A DNA stretch of 63,992 bases, the filler included, from Candidatus Woesearchaeota archaeon (GTDB lineage Archaea > Nanobdellota > Nanobdellia > Woesearchaeales > B72-G16): NCBI GenBank assembly GCA_003650545.1. It is 4 parts of 4 records of this genome, joined end to end, with 100 filler letters (N's around TTAATTAATTAA, not from the genome) between each part and the next. Parts side by side here need not be neighbours in the genome. Positions count along the whole stretch, not along the records: positions 40,764 to 60,580 come from QMQO01000025.1; 3 more parts are not named here. One strand, given 5' to 3'. Both the position numbers and the translations under genes were made by a program. Positions 20,507-60,680 of the stretch are shown here, in pieces; the first letter of the stretch is position 1; each line of letters opens with the position of its first letter. The notes beneath the pieces are model-generated. The model saw nothing but the letters and a program-made list of their open reading frames with translations, had not been told where the DNA came from and ran no database searches.

Positions 20507-20606
20507 NNNNNNNNNNNNNNNNNNNNNNNNNNNNNNNNNNNNNNNNNNNNTTAATTAATTAANNNNNNNNNNNNNNNNNNNNNNNNNNNNNNNNNNNNNN
20601 NNNNNN
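20507..20606. other. Artificial contig linker
   Basis: 44 N + TTAATTAATTAA (stops in all six frames) + 44 N. Confidence 0.99.
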
Positions 20607-40663: not shown

Positions 40664-40763
40664 NNNNNNNNNNNNNNNNNNNNNNNNNNNNNNNNNNNNN
40701 NNNNNNNTTAATTAATTAANNNNNNNNNNNNNNNNNNNNNNNNNNNNNNNNNNNNNNNNNNNN
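40664..40763. other. Artificial contig linker
   Basis: N-run + TTAATTAATTAA + N-run. Confidence 0.99.
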
Positions 40764-43515: not shown

Positions 43516-45837
43516 TTATGCAGTGATGATCTCAACGATTGCCTTGTCAAATAAAACGTCAACGCCAAACCTGTGAGTTGCAACGATCTTTAGCTGTCTC
43601 TTACCGATTTCTTTCTGTGTTTCTACTAGTAATTCGCGTTTTGGAGCTAGAACTACTGCGTCGCGCCTCATGAGAAAGGCGTGATAACAGGTGACTCCAC
43701 CAGCATTTTCAGTTGTTGGAACCTTGCTTGATAATACGATTGGTATGCCCATGATTGAGTCCATTACAACTTTTCCGCCAGCGACACCGGCCTTACTAGC
43801 ATCCTTAAACCATTGTAATGAATTATTTAAATCGTGCCATTGCTTTGGTGACAGTACGAGTACGAGGTCGCTTGGAGTTACATCATATCCATTATCGGCA
43901 ATAGTCTTAAGAGCTTTTAATACGAGGTCAGCGGTGAAAGTATCGGCAGAATCAATTGAGTCAACATCAGTTGCATCTCCACCATAAATTTCAGTTATAT
44001 TCGTATCAGCCTTGAGAGTTGACAGTATAACTTCGTCTTCCTTGAGCTTAGCGGCTTTAGCGAGGCCAGCATTTATTGCTCTTATAAGCTCTTCGCCGAG
44101 ATCCTCAATGTCTTGATAATCAATGGTGCCGACTAAACCGTATTCGTTCAATGTTACTTCAACTGCGCTTACAGTCCAAGTAGTATCGGATGGCTCAGTT
44201 CCCTTCGTGAGCTGAGCGAACTCTGGAACAGTTATTTTTCTTATTCTTACTCTATCGCCTTGAGTTACTTGAACTACTCTTACAGCGCTCCTTAAGTTTG
44301 CAATAAGTCCAATTGGCTCCGCTTCAATTTCAGTCTTCCACGTTACTTGAGTTACACCAGTGCCAATAGATACAGCTTCTCTAAGATCCTTGACTGTCTT
44401 TAGAATTGGATCCTTCTCTTCCATCACAACACCCTTTCCTGCCTTCTCTTCTACCTTCTCCATTTTCTCCTCACCCTCAACCTTTTCTACTTCTTTTTTG
44501 CCCCCCACAGATTCCACAGCCGACGTGGGGGCAACCGTCGGCTGCGGCTCCTCAAGTTGATGAGGAGCATGAACCTCGTCACTTACTTCAAGCATTTCCT
44601 TGAATTCTGGCGGCTCTTTGTCGAACTGCTCATAGTGTGCACGTAAATGCTCATAAACTGCCCTTCGATCCTTAGCTGGAATATTGACGCCGCCACGCGC
44701 ACCCATCAATGCAGCCATAGCCGCAGCAACGCCGCGCCAAACGACGACAAGTTTACCGTCGATCACGTCGTGATGCGGCAATTTGTATGAGCCGAAGTTT
44801 TCCGGATCATTCTCGTCATACCATGCAAATGCCATTCGATATTTTCGCCAATCAATCTTGTCTTTATCGCCGGATCCATCACTACTTGCCCATTTTCGTA
44901 TTCTTGTGATTGCAGCGGTTTTATCCCACTCTCGTTCTTCAGGTGCCTTCGGCGTTTTATGTTTTGGTGGAACGGCTTCAGCAACTTCTTTGTCATTATT
45001 GTAGTTTTCTAGGCTAATTGTAACGTTGACTTGGGCTTCTGGGCCGACATCAATGTTTGCTTGTGGCTCGGAGGCTGCTGGCTCAACCTCAATTTTCGGC
45101 TCTGGCTTTTCAGCAACTGTCGGTTTAGCTTCAATATTGGGTTCTTTCACTTCTTTCAGGGAAACTTCTTCCTTTTCTTTCCCTTTCTCCTCAACTTTCT
45201 CTTGTTTTTTCTCACTCATATTCTCACAACAAACAAGTTTTTCAATGACCATGATATTCGCATGTGGATCGCCGGGCACGGCGACAAGTGAAAGCTCACA
45301 AAAACGAAGATTACGCGGTACACGAATACCATCAAGATAATCTATAAGCTCATAATCAGCTGCAATACTTACATGCTTAATAACACCGGCCCGAATCTTA
45401 TCGGCAACCTCATCATCATAAATTTCAGCTTCAAAAACAATTGCCCGCTCATCTTCATCCCAATAAGCATTCACGACTTTGCCAACCGCATTATTCACGT
45501 CAACATGCTCCAAGTAAACCGGCACGCCAATGAGGCTTTGAGCCGCCTTTTTCAACTCAGTCTCTAAATATAAATTCCAGTTGCGAGTTGCACCGGCATG
45601 AATGGCATAGCCGCGAATCCTTAATGGCTTAACATCAAGACGAAACTTCTCAAATGATATTCGCCATTCTCTTCGAAATTTCTGGAGCTGCGGCTCAATT
45701 GGCTTTGTCTCGTCAAGCATATATTTGTTGAGCCACATGCGATAATATTCTTCACCTTTTTCTTCACCATATATTTCGATGAAGTTGCGATAAATTGTCT
45801 CAAAGTCGGGATGACGATTAGGCGGCATAAAACTCAC
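43516..45837 (-). CDS. Prohead protease / scaffold / HK97-fold major capsid fusion
   Basis: Protease motifs IRGYA, LEH, VSI and ELSLVAVPGDP; acidic linker; C-terminal MCP (LVLSPKQW, IMGIPIVLS, HRFGV). Confidence 0.85.
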   Translation of the reverse strand: MSFMPPNRHPDFETIYRNFIEIYGEEKGEEYYRMWLNKYMLDETKPIEPQLQKFRREWRISFEKFRLDVKPLRIRGYAIHAGATRNWNLYLETELKKAAQSLIGVPVYLEHVDVNNAVGKVVNAYWDEDERAIVFEAEIYDDEVADKIRAGVIKHVSIAADYELIDYLDGIRVPRNLRFCELSLVAVPGDPHANIMVIEKLVCCENMSEKKQEKVEEKGKEKEEVSLKEVKEPNIEAKPTVAEKPEPKIEVEPAASEPQANIDVGPEAQVNVTISLENYNNDKEVAEAVPPKHKTPKAPEEREWDKTAAITRIRKWASSDGSGDKDKIDWRKYRMAFAWYDENDPENFGSYKLPHHDVIDGKLVVVWRGVAAAMAALMGARGGVNIPAKDRRAVYEHLRAHYEQFDKEPPEFKEMLEVSDEVHAPHQLEEPQPTVAPTSAVESVGGKKEVEKVEGEEKMEKVEEKAGKGVVMEEKDPILKTVKDLREAVSIGTGVTQVTWKTEIEAEPIGLIANLRSAVRVVQVTQGDRVRIRKITVPEFAQLTKGTEPSDTTWTVSAVEVTLNEYGLVGTIDYQDIEDLGEELIRAINAGLAKAAKLKEDEVILSTLKADTNITEIYGGDATDVDSIDSADTFTADLVLKALKTIADNGYDVTPSDLVLVLSPKQWHDLNNSLQWFKDASKAGVAGGKVVMDSIMGIPIVLSSKVPTTENAGGVTCYHAFLMRRDAVVLAPKRELLVETQKEIGKRQLKIVATHRFGVDVLFDKAIVEIITA

Positions 45838-47240: not shown

Positions 47241-47332
47241 CTTTTCTTCCTCACAAACGGATTTTTTGCTTTATCAATGACTGTTTTCTGTGACCTTAGA
47301 AACTTGAAGAAGCGCTTGAATTGCTTGTTCAT
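47237..47332 (-). CDS. 31-aa basic peptide between terL and portal
   Basis: MNKQFKRFFKFLRSQKTVIDKAKNPFVRKKS; its TGA overlaps the portal TTG. Confidence 0.45.
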   Translation of the reverse strand: MNKQFKRFFKFLRSQKTVIDKAKNPFVRKKS

Positions 47333-47365
47333 CTCATAAATTATAATTGTCATAAGACAAGTTTC
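47332..47365 (-). promoter_or_regulatory. 34-bp repeated motif, copy A (candidate late promoter/operator)
   Basis: 31/34 identical to 51908-51941; TTGTC-N4-GACAA palindrome followed by a TATA-like box. Confidence 0.6.
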
Positions 47366-48726
47366 TAGAAAATTTTCTTCGCCTTATCAACAAAAATTCG
47401 CGGCTTAGTAAATGCAGCATAAACAGCTAACGCGAAAGCCCAAAGCCGATCGTCATGCGTTCCAGCAGGATGATAAAATTTTATGCGGCCATCCTTAGTA
47501 AGCTCAAACTTCTCAACATTTAATTCAGCAATGAGATCCTTATCATACGGAATCTTAACTAAGCCTTCTTGCATCTTCGCTTTCAGTAAACTCATTATTT
47601 CCTCTTTACGCGGCAATGTTAAGGTAATGCCGGTGACGTTTGATAAGCCGGCCCGCTTCATATCCTCAGTAATATATTCGCCAACACCTGTAACATCAGT
47701 ATAGATTCGCCGCACAAATTTCCAGCGATCATAAAGCGTCTTTACATAACCGATGACTGAAGCATAAGGCGTTTCAAGTGGAAATCTATGTAAGTGAATA
47801 AGCTTAACAACATCATTCTCTTTTTCAACAACTGTAACAACTGAATAATCGACTTTCTTACCGAAGTCAATACCAATATAGAGATCTTTACTGGTTATAC
47901 GCGCATCAAACGAATAATAATCAAGCTCAGCATCAATACACTTAGCAATTAAGTCTTGCGTCAACCATGAATCTTCATCTTCAACAAATTCAGCTTCAAA
48001 CTCCATTTTGAAACGCTGTGCCGGCAACTGTCGTTTCATCTCCTCAATAAAATCAAGACTTACAAGGCCGCATTTTACAACTTCGCGCCAATCTAGGAAA
48101 TGTTTGCTAAAGTTTGGATCAATACACATTTTGTAGAAAACTGAGTCGGTGCCCCAAGGCGTTGAACTCACAATAAGCGTGCCATCCGTCGTGCTAAGCA
48201 TTGGATAAAGAACTGAATAAAAAATGTCTTCATCATCTTTGAAAAATGCGGCTTCATCTGTAATTACTTGATGAGCCGTATAACCTCGCAAAAGATGAAC
48301 CGAACATGGAAGCGCGACAATTTGAGATCCATTCTTAAACCTTATGACGGTTCGCAGCATTTTTAAAACAAGCTGTCGGCGAAGATCTTTAGGCAAGCTT
48401 AGTAAGAAGCCGTGAATCTTATCCATCATGATCATGCTTTGACGTTTTGATGGTGCAACAATAAGCGTTAAAGTTTTCGGGTGAGTAACTGCAAACCAAA
48501 TGGCGCGGGCTGCAATTGTCGTTGACTTACCGCTCTGACGCGGCCACTTCACAACAATACGCTTAGATTGATCCCGCAACAACTTTTCTTGATAAGGCAA
48601 CGGCTTAAAACCAAGAATCTTCACGCAAAACTCAACCGGATCACTCGGCAACTTAACACGCTTATATTGTTGTTTAAGCAATTTATCAATGATTTTTGTA
48701 AGTCGTTCAAGCTCGGTTCGACTCAT
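47365..48726 (-). CDS. terL: Terminase large subunit
   Basis: Walker A RQSGKS, Walker B ITDEAA, STP, and nuclease GIDFG and HDD. Confidence 0.95.
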   Translation of the reverse strand: MSRTELERLTKIIDKLLKQQYKRVKLPSDPVEFCVKILGFKPLPYQEKLLRDQSKRIVVKWPRQSGKSTTIAARAIWFAVTHPKTLTLIVAPSKRQSMIMMDKIHGFLLSLPKDLRRQLVLKMLRTVIRFKNGSQIVALPCSVHLLRGYTAHQVITDEAAFFKDDEDIFYSVLYPMLSTTDGTLIVSSTPWGTDSVFYKMCIDPNFSKHFLDWREVVKCGLVSLDFIEEMKRQLPAQRFKMEFEAEFVEDEDSWLTQDLIAKCIDAELDYYSFDARITSKDLYIGIDFGKKVDYSVVTVVEKENDVVKLIHLHRFPLETPYASVIGYVKTLYDRWKFVRRIYTDVTGVGEYITEDMKRAGLSNVTGITLTLPRKEEIMSLLKAKMQEGLVKIPYDKDLIAELNVEKFELTKDGRIKFYHPAGTHDDRLWAFALAVYAAFTKPRIFVDKAKKIF

Positions 48727-49334
48727 AAAAATCGCCTTAATTGTGATTGGTTTGTTAATTCGATAATTGCATTCTTAAAGTTTAGAAGATTTATTTTAAA
48801 CAATTCTTCGTTTGTTAATTTGTTTATTGGCCGAGTGTGCTTTTTCCATCCTTGCCATATCAAACCATTTTTGACGAAAAAAGACGGTATTGTCGTGTCA
48901 AATCCATCAAAATTTAAAATTATTTCCGGCTTCTTTCCCATCCAACCTAAAAACCAACGTTTTTTATCTTTTGTAAATTCTAAAAATTCATTTAATGAAT
49001 AATCACGTGTAACCAATCCTTTTAAACATGGTTTTCGTGGAAAAGCAACCCACTCAAAATTTTGAGCAAAATTAAGTTCACTTTTAAAATGAAGCGGAAA
49101 AATCCAATTTATATGTGAAAATTTTTTAAGAAGCCATAATAAATCATAACGAAAATCAGGATAAACTACAAATTTAACTTCATTACCATATTCAACTAAA
49201 ATTTTAAGTAGTTTCTTCACATTTGGTTTACCAAAACGAACAAATTCATTGTCAACAAACTCCGGAAAAGTAAGAAAACCAAGCTCTTTCACATATTTTA
49301 TTTGATAATAATAACATGGTATTGCAATAATCAT
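48723..49334 (-). CDS. TGT/DpdA-like TIM-barrel protein (AT-rich insert)
   Basis: Ordered motifs FVDN, VVYPD, IFPLH, WVAF, WFLG and GFDTT parallel the transglycosylase barrel strands. RBS GGTGTGA precedes the ATG at 49334. Confidence 0.5.
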   Translation of the reverse strand: MIIAIPCYYYQIKYVKELGFLTFPEFVDNEFVRFGKPNVKKLLKILVEYGNEVKFVVYPDFRYDLLWLLKKFSHINWIFPLHFKSELNFAQNFEWVAFPRKPCLKGLVTRDYSLNEFLEFTKDKKRWFLGWMGKKPEIILNFDGFDTTIPSFFVKNGLIWQGWKKHTRPINKLTNEELFKINLLNFKNAIIELTNQSQLRRFL

Positions 49335-49413
49335 AATCACACCTAGAGTATTTTGGTTGGAATATTCTTGTGAGACGCTCAAGTTCACTTCGACTCATAA
49401 AATCACCAGAAAT

Positions 49414-49522
49414 ATTGGGCCGGAGGGCCTGAATCTGTGATGAAAACCAGGCTAGATGATTGGTGATTTAAGGCTTAGCAACCGAGGCACCTGCAGCCAG
49501 CGGGATACCCTTCCGGCCCAAT
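49414..49522 (+). ncRNA. Candidate box C/D guide sRNA 2 inside an 11-bp outer stem
   Basis: GTGATGA-12 nt-ATGA-ttg-GTGATTT-12 nt-CCGA (49437-49485), enclosed by ATTGGGCCGGA/TCCGGCCCAAT. Confidence 0.6.
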
Positions 49523-49636
49523 TCAATATTTTCTTAGAACGTAGTATAAATTTATTCTGGTTGGAATATGCTGATGAGAATGTGAAGAGATCCCTCCCTT
49601 CATTGAGGCCCTACATGCCTCTCTGGTGAGGATCAT

Positions 49637-49918
49637 CTATTCCATCATCTCTTCGAGGAGCTTTAGTTTTTCTTTGAGTAATTCGAGTTGCTTCTTTATG
49701 TCTTGCTCGTCATAGCTGTTGAGTATTGAGTTTATTGTTTGAGCAATATATGCAGCAAGCCTTGCCCACTTTTCCCTTCGCTTCACATTGAGTCTTTTAT
49801 CTGTTGAGTAGCGATAACAAATGTCAAAAAGCTCCTTAAGTTTCTCAATTATTTTTTCACGTTCAAGCTGCGTGTCAATAGCCATTAAACTCTCAAATAC
49901 GCTTTTCATTTCACTCAC
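49637..49918 (-). CDS. Putative terminase small subunit
   Basis: Small helical protein with a coiled-coil end upstream of terL; positional call only. Confidence 0.5.
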   Translation of the reverse strand: MSEMKSVFESLMAIDTQLEREKIIEKLKELFDICYRYSTDKRLNVKRREKWARLAAYIAQTINSILNSYDEQDIKKQLELLKEKLKLLEEMME

Positions 49919-50978: not shown

Positions 50979-51008
50979 GATGATCCCACCAAAATGGTGG
51001 TGGGGGGT

Positions 51009-51080
51009 TGGGCCGGCTCAGCTAGCGACCAAGTTCATCATCGATTATTCAGCTTTGGGAGGATCATCATCGCCGGCCCA
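51009..51080 (-). ncRNA. Box C/D guide sRNA 1
   Basis: TGGGCCGGC-G-ATGATGA-TCCTCCCAAAG-CTGA-ATAATCG-ATGATGA-ACTTGGTCGCTAG-CTGA-GCCGGCCCA: four consensus boxes, 11- and 13-nt guides, a 9-bp terminal stem and a 3-nt k-turn bulge; intergenic. Confidence 0.9.
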
Positions 51081-51090
51081 CAAGAACCTG

Positions 51091-51318: not shown

Positions 51319-51929
51319 TTAAACCACCTTTCCAAAATCTTACGAGTGTAAATATATGCAAAGAATGTGAAAGTTAGGATCGTGCCGAAAGTCGAGATGA
51401 GTGGCAGCCAATCGTAAAGCCAATCCAAACCTGCAAACGCAAGCATCTCGCAGAATGCGTAAATGCCTTGTGCAAACGCGTTTGTCATTAATGCGAATTT
51501 ATCGTCAATGTCTTGGCCGGGCCGCAATGCAAGAATCATATAGAGAATGAAAACCGAACCGCCGCCCATAAATGCAACAGCGATGATTCGATTAAGCGAT
51601 TCAGGCCATGCAGTTGGGAAAACAGCGGCGCCATGCGGCATTAATTTAATGTAGCCGTCGCCGCCAAGCCAGCGTAAAACAACGAGATGACCAAACTCAT
51701 GTATCGGCAAAGTCATGAGCCAAAAAATAAGATATACAAATGTAAATGAAAGAATCTTGAAAAGCGTGGGCCGACGTGCACAAGCAAGATAAAGTTGCAC
51801 TCGCAAATCACGTCGCTGTAAATATAAAGTTAAAGCGATGCCACCGACAATTAATGAAGTAAGCAATTCGAAAACAATGGGATTCAAGGCGGATCCTCTC
51901 ACAAAATTCTCACAAAATATAGTTGTCAT
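51315..51929 (-). CDS. M50-like membrane zinc metalloprotease (start may be TTG near 51887)
   Basis: PIHEFGH within a TM helix and AFMGG. Confidence 0.7.
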   Translation of the reverse strand: MTTIFCENFVRGSALNPIVFELLTSLIVGGIALTLYLQRRDLRVQLYLACARRPTLFKILSFTFVYLIFWLMTLPIHEFGHLVVLRWLGGDGYIKLMPHGAAVFPTAWPESLNRIIAVAFMGGGSVFILYMILALRPGQDIDDKFALMTNAFAQGIYAFCEMLAFAGLDWLYDWLPLISTFGTILTFTFFAYIYTRKILERWFK

Positions 51930-51941
51930 AAGACAAGTTTC
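51908..51941 (-). promoter_or_regulatory. 34-bp repeated motif, copy B
   Basis: Heads the leftward late gene block; matches 47332-47365. Confidence 0.6.
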
Positions 51942-55810: not shown

Positions 55811-55919
55811 TTATCATCACTCCTTCTTGAATTATCATCACAGTGAGTGATGGTAATACGCGTGAAAAGTGATGATAATCTACGGAAAAGTGATGATGAG
55901 TGATGATAAGTGATGATAA
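55811..55919. repeat. Iteron cluster 1 (seven GTGATGATAA-like 10-mers)
   Basis: Reverse copies at 55811 and 55832; forward copies at 55847, 55869, 55890, 55900 and 55910. Confidence 0.85.
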
Positions 55920-56139: not shown

Positions 56140-57766
56140 TTTTATTCCACTCCATAAGTTTTAAGTAGAGATTACCGGCCCGACGCTCTAAGAATAGTTT
56201 ACCCTCATCGATGAGTTCTTCGATGATTGGATCGGGGTTTGCTAGTCCGTTGAGTGCACAGGTGTTCAGCAATTGTCGATATTCTATGCCTTCCGGCCGG
56301 TGTTTCTCTATGAGTGTGATGATCCAGCGCTTAAAACTTAATTTTTCTAGTGTTTTCTCTGTATTACCATCACTCATCATCACTTCCATTGTTTTATCAT
56401 CACTCGTTATCATCACTTTTTCCGGCGTTATCATCACAGGATGTGATGATAAAAACAGGTCTAGTGATGATGGAATGTAGCGGCGTGCAAGTCGAACTAT
56501 AAGTTTTTCATCGTATTTAATGGCGATTCGACTGTCGTCGTTACTCATTCGCATTTTCTTGAAGCCAAGCTTCTTCAAAATTTTGCCAAGCTGTGTAGGT
56601 CGCATTTGATCTTTTTCGTCTCGATTCATATTGATTTGATCAAGAATAGTTTGTAATGGTAATTTGTTTTTCTCGACGAGATCTTTACATTTGATGATTG
56701 CGTCGATGACTTCAGCTTCAATTGTTGTTCGTTCTTCTTCACGTATTATTGTTGCTAGGCTTTCACCATATTTAATCAAATTTTGTTTTACGTCGGCCGG
56801 CGTCACAGCGAGCGGTGCAATGAATAATTCAGTTAGGCGGCCGTTCTCACCTATCCGTACGATTTGATCCTCAGTTACGTTAAAGTCATCTTCAATTAGT
56901 TTTTGTATGCGGTATCGTAACAGTTTGCTGCGGAGATTGGCGGCCCAGTCAAAATCAAGCATAATCTTCACTTGTCGCACGGCGCGGCTCATATTAATTA
57001 TGAAGCATCTTGACTGAAATGTCGGTGCTAAAAGAGTTGTGCATGCAACTGCCTTGAAGCCAAACACGTCATAAAGGCCGAGTTCAAGTTTATTTTCACC
57101 AACTTTTTCAACTCGTATTGCACATTGTCCGCGTCGATATCCAGCGTTTAGGAGTGCCATGACTTCAAGCATGTCGCTGCGATTATAGATTTCAGCTTCA
57201 TCAAGAATGATTGTTGGGTGCCATGCTTCACATGCGCGGAATAATCCGGCTGGTCGAATGCTTGTTGACATTAAGCCGCGATAACTAAGTTGCCACAAAA
57301 CTTCTAGGCAGCGCGTTTTACCCGAGTTGAGTGGGCCGATGAAAAACAGGTAAGGTACTACATTGAATTTTTCGGGGATCCACGTCGCCATGATCCAGCT
57401 CGCCATAAGCGCGTAATGCTCCTTCTCGCTAAAATCAATATGCTGATAAACATAATCATAGATTTCTTGCCACAACTCATCTTCATTAACGCGATCAACC
57501 GGCGGCTTCGGAATAGGCGGCCAAGGCAGCTTCTTCAAAGCAACCTCATTAATCTCATAGCCATTTTCATCAACACCGAGATAACGTACTGCAGGCCGCT
57601 GCACATGCAAAACAAACTTATCACGCTCTCCACGCACAAAATAAGCTTCACAATAAGCGTATTGACCATCATCACACATTACTTGCTCAAACAGAAACAT
57701 ATTCCGCTGATCAAAATAACCTGGCGAATACTTTACAATAACCTTCTCACGACTATTACGCCTCAT
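56129..57766 (-). CDS. P-loop AAA+/helicase-like replication protein with C-terminal wHTH
   Basis: GPLNSGKT, ILDEAE, LLNAGY and the QSRC arginine finger. Confidence 0.75.
   Translation of the reverse strand: MRRNSREKVIVKYSPGYFDQRNMFLFEQVMCDDGQYAYCEAYFVRGERDKFVLHVQRPAVRYLGVDENGYEINEVALKKLPWPPIPKPPVDRVNEDELWQEIYDYVYQHIDFSEKEHYALMASWIMATWIPEKFNVVPYLFFIGPLNSGKTRCLEVLWQLSYRGLMSTSIRPAGLFRACEAWHPTIILDEAEIYNRSDMLEVMALLNAGYRRGQCAIRVEKVGENKLELGLYDVFGFKAVACTTLLAPTFQSRCFIINMSRAVRQVKIMLDFDWAANLRSKLLRYRIQKLIEDDFNVTEDQIVRIGENGRLTELFIAPLAVTPADVKQNLIKYGESLATIIREEERTTIEAEVIDAIIKCKDLVEKNKLPLQTILDQINMNRDEKDQMRPTQLGKILKKLGFKKMRMSNDDSRIAIKYDEKLIVRLARRYIPSSLDLFLSSHPVMITPEKVMITSDDKTMEVMMSDGNTEKTLEKLSFKRWIITLIEKHRPEGIEYRQLLNTCALNGLANPDPIIEELIDEGKLFLERRAGNLYLKLMEWNKNEV
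56364..56473. repeat. Iteron cluster 2 inside the replication gene
   Basis: Reverse copies at 56364, 56374, 56394, 56407 and 56428; forward copies at 56443 and 56464. Confidence 0.85.
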
Positions 57767-60580: not shown

Positions 60581-60680
60581 NNNNNNNNNNNNNNNNNNNN
60601 NNNNNNNNNNNNNNNNNNNNNNNNTTAATTAATTAANNNNNNNNNNNNNNNNNNNNNNNNNNNNNNNNNNNNNNNNNNNN
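60581..60680. other. Artificial contig linker
   Basis: N-run + TTAATTAATTAA + N-run. Confidence 0.99.

Follow-up and report, generated by a model that had tools for sequence, protein, structure and literature searches.

Does the 109-base hairpin at positions 49414-49522 encode a box C/D guide RNA, and if so, what would such an RNA do for the virus that carries it? We addressed this question within the whole stretch of DNA analysed here (63,992 nt; hereafter the window), starting from an earlier note that had described the hairpin as a variant C/D sRNA. Our leading reading, which we hold tentatively and somewhat short of an even chance, is that the element is a divergent plus-strand box C/D-type guide RNA gene located in an insertion of a Bathyarchaeia tailed (pro)virus.

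Genomic setting of the hairpin

The window consists of four contigs joined by N44-TTAATTAATTAA-N44 linkers at 20507-20606, 40664-40763 and 60581-60680, and genes flanking a linker are thus not physically linked. The hairpin sits in the third contig (40764-60580), a viral contig whose genes for a tail tube protein, a head-tail connector, a capsid fusion protein, a portal and the large terminase (TerL) all lie on the minus strand. The genes flanking the hairpin are likewise all on the minus strand, and a plus-strand element would be antisense to them, as claimed.

Searches with TerL identified 1637 relatives at E<=1e-20, and those that carry names are Bathyarchaeia or Thermoproteota MAGs; the closest cultured virus by this protein is Halogranum tailed virus 1, at 29.6% identity. 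As a comparison set we used 80 loci pulled by a TerL profile, which total 889 kb, or 1.78 Mb counting both strands. All except one are labelled Bathyarchaeia, Bathyarchaeota or Bathyarchaeales (79/80), the remaining locus (L030) being labelled Candidatus Acidoferrum. Many of these loci are embedded in contigs of hundreds of kilobases to more than 2 Mb and are therefore proviruses. Several have tRNA genes downstream of TerL: tRNA-Gly(UCC) at 7573-7651 of L017, about 300 nt away, and tRNA-Ile(GAU) within a few kb in L073, L079, L061 and L066, paired with tRNA-Arg(UCG) in the first two. These could be provirus borders or virus-borne tRNAs.

Other features of the viral contig were recorded alongside. 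The HK97-type capsid domain of a 773-aa ORF (43516-45837, minus strand) is confined to residues about 499-768, and its N-terminal 500 residues may represent a fused protease or scaffold. Two copies of a 34-nt direct repeat, with 91% identity, occur before the portal gene (47332-47365) and where a 204-aa membrane-protein gene starts (51908-51941); the repeat contains TATA-like words on the minus strand and may be a shared promoter or operator. Clusters of an (A)GTGATGAT(AA) iteron in both orientations (55813-55917 and 56364-56471) surround the start of a 545-aa ORF and hold 12 of the 18 GTGATGAT sites in the window; they are probably a replication origin or operator region. Lastly, no word is more over-represented in the contig than GGGCCGG(C), which has 17 sites between 41805 and 60531 (14-fold for the 7-mer and 26-fold for the 8-mer). 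The other three contigs lack this word and the 80 related loci are nearly devoid of it; the acceptor stem of Bathyarchaeia tRNA-Ile(GAU) has the same sequence.

Architecture of the element

The boxes, spacers and coordinates proposed for the plus strand proved exact against the sequence (Table 1). From 5' to 3', the core comprises a C box, 12 nt, a D' box, a 3-nt UUG linker, a C' box, 12 nt and a D box. The 11-bp enclosing stem described previously, ATTGGGCCGGA / TCCGGCCCAAT, is present and reaches 14 bp on the plus strand, with zero mismatches and a single G·U pair at 49425·49511. In the minimum-energy fold of the plus strand, the D' guide is partly paired with 49427-31. The additional CUGA that had been pointed out is there too; by inspection, it could make a D'/C'-type K-loop together with the C box, while a K-turn formed from it and the outer stem did not fit. 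Inspection likewise gave no fit to a bulge-helix-bulge splice motif around the core, and TRF found no tandem 26-27-nt repeat units, the units having mostly just their boxes in common. A 57-aa plus-strand frame runs from the ATG of the D' box through the hairpin (49456-49629) and was judged spurious.

Table 1. Features of the hairpin and of its neighbourhood, in positions of the window
Feature	Position	Strand	Description	Basis
TerL	47365..48726	-	Large terminase	Domain and homologue searches
orf203	48723..49334	-	Small TGT-fold protein, cargo of the 910-nt insertion	Structure model, homologues
Partial TerL 5' duplicate	49349..49398	-	GGTGAT Shine-Dalgarno, ATG 49398, MSRSELERLTRIFQPKY..., 48-aa frame	Repeats
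Outer stem, 5' arm	49414..49427	+	ATTGGGCCGGAGGG; contains the contig-wide over-represented GGGCCGG	Sequence, folding, word statistics
Extra CUGA	49429..49432	+	4 nt upstream of the C box	Sequence
C box	49437..49443	+	GUGAUGA, canonical RUGAUGA	Sequence, layout scan
D' guide	49444..49455	+	AAACCAGGCUAG, 12 nt	Complementary to tRNA D-arm/loop nt 12-20b
D' box	49456..49459	+	Variant AUGA	Sequence
C' box	49463..49469	+	Variant GUGAUUU	Position-5 U able to pair with A in AUGA
D guide	49470..49481	+	AAGGCUUAGCAA, 12 nt	Sequence
D box	49482..49485	+	Variant CCGA; GA kept, U replaced by C	Sequence
Hairpin in 3' spacer	49490..49504	+	5 bp, CCUGC-AGCCA-GCGGG; one U·G on the plus strand	Folding
Outer stem, 3' arm	49509..49522	+	CCCTTCCGGCCCAAT	Sequence, folding
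Second partial TerL 5' duplicate	49553..49604	-	ATG 49604, ...ISIFQPE	Repeats
orf93	49637..49918	-	Conserved small gene abutting TerL in relatives	Homologues, projected ends
sRNA 1	51008..51081	-	Canonical C/D sRNA; 8-bp GGGCCGGC stem abutting the boxes	Pattern and Rfam

The earlier note's identification of this element as a C/D sRNA stands in part. In its favour are the rarity of the layout, the spacers, the presence 1.5 kb away of a canonical C/D sRNA closed by the same GGGCCGG word, the complementarity of the D' guide described below, and the GA dinucleotides needed for kink-turns, which are intact in D', C' and D. The C box GUGAUGA, the two 12-nt guides and the 3-nt linker are likewise those of archaeal C/D sRNAs. 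Against it are the D box, the stem next to the boxes and the scores against family models. The D box is CCGA, and no CUGA lies between it and the stem; adjacent to the boxes only C49435-G49486 and U49434·G49487 can pair, and the long stem stands apart from them, 9 nt off on the 5' side and 23 nt off on the 3' side. The description of the boxes as degenerate was accurate, as they hold four mismatches including this CCGA.

The deviations in the internal boxes had been called compensatory, and we agree: AUGA with UGAUU exchanges a C-G pair for A-U, and this combination would be compensatory under K-loop geometry. The same variants occur in the alignment consensus of sR20 (RF01140, a curated Pyrococcus family), where D' is AUGA and C' is GAUGAUU. 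At gathering thresholds, Rfam gave no match for the element. The best family was sR20, with 16.6 bits where its threshold is 44 (E=1.4), sR3 scored 12.3 bits against a threshold of 41, and the generic archaeal C/D model RF00095 gave no match at E<=10. As noted before, no plus-strand promoter was apparent, and no terminator was found either, in scans built on bacterial-type consensus sequences only; the bacterial-type scan for a hairpin followed by a U-tract returned no site in 49200-49800. Membership in the C/D family is not established.

The box layout is unlikely to be chance

How often such a layout arises was assessed with a scan that required a perfect C box, GA intact in D', C' and D, at most four box mismatches, and spacings of 11-13, 3-9 and 11-13 nt. 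Two matches were returned in the 64-kb window, the element (4 mismatches) and sRNA 1 (0 mismatches), a canonical C/D sRNA on the same contig. Both strands of the 889 kb of related loci returned one match, and a flanking stem was found neither around it nor around three looser matches. A strict double-guide pattern was matched by sRNA 1 alone in the window and had zero matches in the 889 kb of related loci.

The viral contig contains 35 C-box words, and GTGATGA-type words are enriched there by the iterons; the rate at which the downstream layout fits was therefore measured at every position. This rate was 0.0037 per position, which for 35 C-box words gives 0.13 chance layouts expected per contig and, by arithmetic from the same rates, about 2e-4 in the 81-nt interior of the hairpin. 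Furthermore, inverted GGGCCGG pairs no more than 250 nt apart occur only twice in the window, and both pairs enclose a C/D layout. Given this rarity and the GGGCCGG-closed pairs, the box layout is unlikely to be due to chance. We conclude that the element probably descends, at the very least, from a C/D sRNA.

The hairpin is part of a lineage-specific insertion

No homologue of the element was found in the 80 related loci, where the best blastn match had E=2.1, or in 50,697 phage records, three of which matched no more than 20% of the query. A search for inverted repeats with perfect arms of 9 bp or more, separated by 35-130 nt, gave 416 in the loci and window combined; of those in the loci, seven surround a C-box word, and none of these seven has a C/D-like layout.

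The gene order of the relatives accounts for this absence. A homologue of orf93 (93 aa) was detectable in 16 of the 80 loci, and in all 16 its projected end falls -29 to +4 nt from the projected TerL start. As orf93 abuts TerL in the relatives and is separated from it by 910 nt in the window, the hairpin is part of a lineage-specific insertion, and the element is missing from the relatives because the whole 910-nt segment is missing. Besides the hairpin, the insertion contains two partial duplicates of the TerL 5' end and a 203-aa gene, orf203. By inspection, a TATA-like TTTATA follows the second TerL duplicate on the minus strand (49550-49545).

The surroundings had been taken for a terS-terL junction. 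The gene downstream of the hairpin is instead orf203, a gene of the insertion that encodes a protein with a tRNA-guanine transglycosylase (TGT) fold, and not terS. This protein has seven close homologues besides itself and 69 family representatives of about 200 aa. It had no sequence match in Pfam, NCBIfam or PDB sequences, and its link to TGT is by fold only: the model (pLDDT 87.9) matched tRNA-guanine transglycosylases in 50 of the 50 PDB matches listed (E about 2e-5, TMq about 0.5). Remote homologues are found in Sulfolobus monocaudavirus SMV3 and Acidianus rod-shaped virus 2 (ARV2), upstream of whose genes we found no element-like feature, and in one relative the protein is joined to an MT-A70 methyltransferase domain. 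The motif FDGFDTTIP appears to resemble DxFDxxxP, which we take to be the catalytic motif of TGT and DpdA enzymes, and we presume that orf203 may be a DpdA-like base-exchange enzyme. The tRNA-binding C-terminal domains that we take to be typical of archaeal TGT are presumably lacking in the 203-aa protein.

A canonical C/D sRNA lies 1.5 kb away

The neighbouring sRNA 1 shows what a standard guide of this contig looks like. It reads stem GGGCCGGC, a bulged G, C box AUGAUGA, an 11-nt guide, D' box CUGA, a 7-nt linker, C' box AUGAUGA, a 13-nt guide, D box CUGA and stem GCCGGCCC. On RF00095 it scores 42.1 bits (E=2.3e-7), just below the threshold of 45, and 31 of its 32 listed Rfam matches are C/D-box families. 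Both RNAs are intergenic on the same viral contig, 1.5 kb apart, and have in common the stem word TTGGGCCGG...CCGGCCCAA (GGGCCGG), the double-guide layout and one guide ending in GCUAG, the last of which had been remarked on for the D guide of sRNA 1. They differ in the boxes, which are perfect in sRNA 1, and in the stem, which in sRNA 1 is 8 bp long and abuts the boxes; sRNA 1 also lies on the same strand as the genes and has its 42.1 bits on RF00095.

The D' guide is complementary to a tRNA D-arm

Across both strands of the related loci (1.78 Mb), the D' guide had a single match at no more than one mismatch, and this match is the D-arm of the tRNA-Gly(UCC) in L017 (CUAGUCUGGUUU, tRNA positions 12-20b). 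Pairing comprises 11 Watson-Crick pairs and one G·U, with a tRNA that comes from a related genome. Of 3000 random 12-mers drawn from the contig and scored on the loci's 11 unique tRNAs, only 3 did as well as the D' guide. Local alignment of the whole element to tRNAs was not significant, as 13 of 200 shuffles reached its score. For the D guide, no target was found in the window or related loci; its complement, UUGCUAAGCCUU, would fit an anticodon loop and 3' stem (U33, GCU, A37, A38). Neither guide of sRNA 1 had a target in the window or related loci. The four guides together gave only antisense self-matches and chance-level single-mismatch matches in the window, and none matched the sarcin-ricin-loop word of rRNA, which is present in one locus only (L025).

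Guides directed at tRNAs have precedent among C/D RNAs in those of the tRNA-Trp intron. The N+5 nucleotide of the D' guide target is position 16. To our knowledge, neither Nm16 nor Nm36 is among the modifications of tRNA.

How the element might act

If the element is a guide RNA gene, its plus-strand transcript would fold so that the 14-bp GC-rich stem clamps both ends. Host L7Ae would bind the C/D kink-turn formed by GUGAUGA with CCGA, with both sheared G·A pairs preserved and U·C in the place of U·U, as well as the C'/D' K-loop AUGA-UUG-GUGAUUU, in which A-U replaces C-G. The two 12-nt guides could then be used by host Nop5-fibrillarin. The D' guide would pair with the D-arm and loop of tRNAs reading CUAGYCUGGUUU and, by the N+5 rule, direct a methyl group to nucleotide 16, next to G15, which we take to be the archaeosine site. 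The pairing partner of the D guide would be UUGCUAAGCCUU, which would suit the anticodon loop of a tRNA-Ser(GCU). The layout with its spacings and rarity, the stem, the canonical sRNA nearby and the D-arm complementarity are observed; plus-strand transcription, protein binding, methylation and both targets we infer.

A bolder proposal, which as a whole we regard as very improbable, is that the insertion carries a two-part viral module composed of a TGT-fold base-exchange enzyme and a C/D-type guide. The guide would cover the tRNA D-loop around G15 and place a 2'-O-methyl on nucleotide 16; with D-loops masked or methylated in this way, host preQ0 would no longer be spent on tRNA, or tRNA would be protected from the viral transglycosylase, and the 7-deazaguanine precursor would then enter viral nucleic acid.

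Other readings of the hairpin

The boxes define the plus strand, and two of its G·U pairs (49425·49511 and 49492·49502) would turn into C·A if the other strand were read. The minus strand nonetheless folds at least as well (-44.2 vs -42.4 kcal/mol, with 5 vs 4 G·U pairs). Folding favours neither strand, and the main rival reading is that the hairpin is a structured leader on the minus strand. Under this reading, which we consider unlikely, a promoter near 49545-49556 drives the inserted cassette, made up of the 48-aa frame and the TGT-fold gene, and the hairpin stabilises or regulates its mRNA; the plus-strand boxes are then coincidence. By inspection, TTTATA (49550-45, minus strand) precedes the stem end at 49522 by about 28 nt, although TATA-like words are frequent in this AT-rich spacer. 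A GGUGAU Shine-Dalgarno and an ATG come right after the hairpin, and the minus-strand fold (-44.2 kcal/mol) has z=-2.16 with a centroid that resembles the minimum-energy structure. Such a leader might even be a tRNA mimic, with a GGGCCGG/CCGGCCC-A acceptor-like helix and the sense D-loop word CUAGCCUGGUUU, G15 included. The stem is identical to the acceptor stem of tRNA-Ile(GAU), and the downstream gene has the TGT fold; the D-loop word, however, is not flanked by a D-stem, ARAGORN reported 0 tRNAs with no tRNA family at E<=10, and the 203-aa protein presumably lacks the tRNA-binding C-terminal domains of archaeal TGT. Coincidence is also costly here, a box layout inside the hairpin being expected by chance at about 2e-4. 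A tRNA gene proper, with or without an intron, was considered separately and rejected on the same searches (ARAGORN, 0 genes in the window; no tRNA family at E<=10), the only tRNA-like features of the element being the acceptor-like 7 bp and the one D-loop word.

Descent from a C/D sRNA is compatible with loss of function, and it is conceivable, if still on the unlikely side, that the element is a decaying relic of an sRNA 1-like ancestor. It would have arisen by copying or inversion in the recombination events behind the insertion, and would now be in the course of losing the D box, the C' box and the stem next to the boxes. Its surroundings, a scar of recombination that includes two partial duplicates of the TerL 5' end, suit such a history, as do the stem word common to the element and sRNA 1, the four box mismatches, the very low covariance-model scores and the extra 9-nt and 23-nt spacers between stem and boxes. 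What decay leaves unaccounted for is a 14-bp stem without a mismatch, guide spacers of exactly 12 nt on both sides, GA dinucleotides that are all kept, a D'/C' change that is compensatory, and a guide that still fits a tRNA D-arm at 12 of 12 positions including one G·U. Finally, the hairpin may act as DNA, as a palindrome of two inverted GGGCCGG(C) words: a site for protein binding or recombination, an insertion of the MITE type, or a signal for packaging. This we consider quite improbable. The word does have 17 sites, 14-fold over the order-2 Markov expectation, in all frames and both orientations; the inverted repeat continues into the flanks (AGAAATATT / AGAAAATATT), the hairpin lies just upstream of the terminase gene, and GTGAT-type words recur as iterons elsewhere in the contig. 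The segment is, however, missing from all relatives, which must still package their DNA, and a palindrome leaves the 12/3/12 box spacing unexplained. A MITE-like element in particular was rejected: inverted repeats are present, but the arms have no target-site duplication directly beside them (the 12-nt direct repeats stand off by 49 and 36 nt) and further copies are absent from the window and the 80 loci.

Implications and comparison with known systems

If an RNA is made from the element and assembled, a Bathyarchaeia virus would encode two box C/D guide RNAs, one of which would be atypical, clamped by a long stem and directed at a tRNA D-loop instead of rRNA. Archaeal viruses could then borrow the RNA-guided methylation machinery of the host, with a concrete guide-target pair in hand. 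Should the two-part module also hold, this virus would, with sRNA 1 counted in, be the first among archaeal viruses for which methylation guides reprogramming the tRNA modification of the host have been demonstrated. Even as a relic, the element would document that sRNA genes and a TGT-fold gene were shuffled into the terminase junction.

Among known RNAs, the element most invites comparison with archaeal box C/D sRNAs (RF00095 snoPyro_CD; RF01140 sR20), with which it shares the canonical C box, two 12-nt guides, a 3-nt linker, GA intact in all boxes and a D'/C' variant as in the sR20 consensus. It departs from them in its CCGA D box and in its offset 14-bp stem and extra hairpin in place of a box-adjacent stem, and also in being virus-borne, antisense to its operon, without a detected homologue and far below family thresholds. 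Read on the minus strand, it recalls the tRNA-like leaders that regulate the gene of their own enzyme, for example E. coli thrS. Like these, it places an acceptor-like helix and a D-loop word before a TGT-fold gene; unlike these, it has no D-stem, anticodon or T arm and was missed by tRNA finders.

Our search of the literature for virus-encoded methylation guides, a weak one as 'C/D' is not searchable as a string, returned only Epstein-Barr virus and, in phages and archaeal viruses, the related TIGR-Tas systems, and the excerpted text of PMC10848311 contains no mention of an sRNA. In the portions of the TIGR-Tas report available (PMC12045711), arrays of 5-15 units with 9-nt spacers and CCA/UG motifs lie beside a Tas gene with a Nop domain. 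These are virus-carried dual-guide units related to box C/D logic, sometimes with a stem-loop, and resemble the element in these respects (PMC12045711, same portions). The element and sRNA 1 are, by comparison, two dispersed units with 12-nt spacers and K-turn-type boxes; TRF found no tandem array of guide units in the window, and no Nop domain of a Tas-like gene was found in the 26 ORFs scanned from the viral contig, which is incomplete. The v-snoRNA1 of Epstein-Barr virus, according to the excerpted report, is a virus-encoded C/D snoRNA with canonical boxes and experimental support (PMC13597479). It belongs to a eukaryotic herpesvirus, has rRNA targets and keeps its boxes canonical, in all of which it is unlike the element, but it offers a parallel for what the element may be, namely a methylation guide carried by a virus and using the C/D machinery of its host (PMC13597479, same excerpts).
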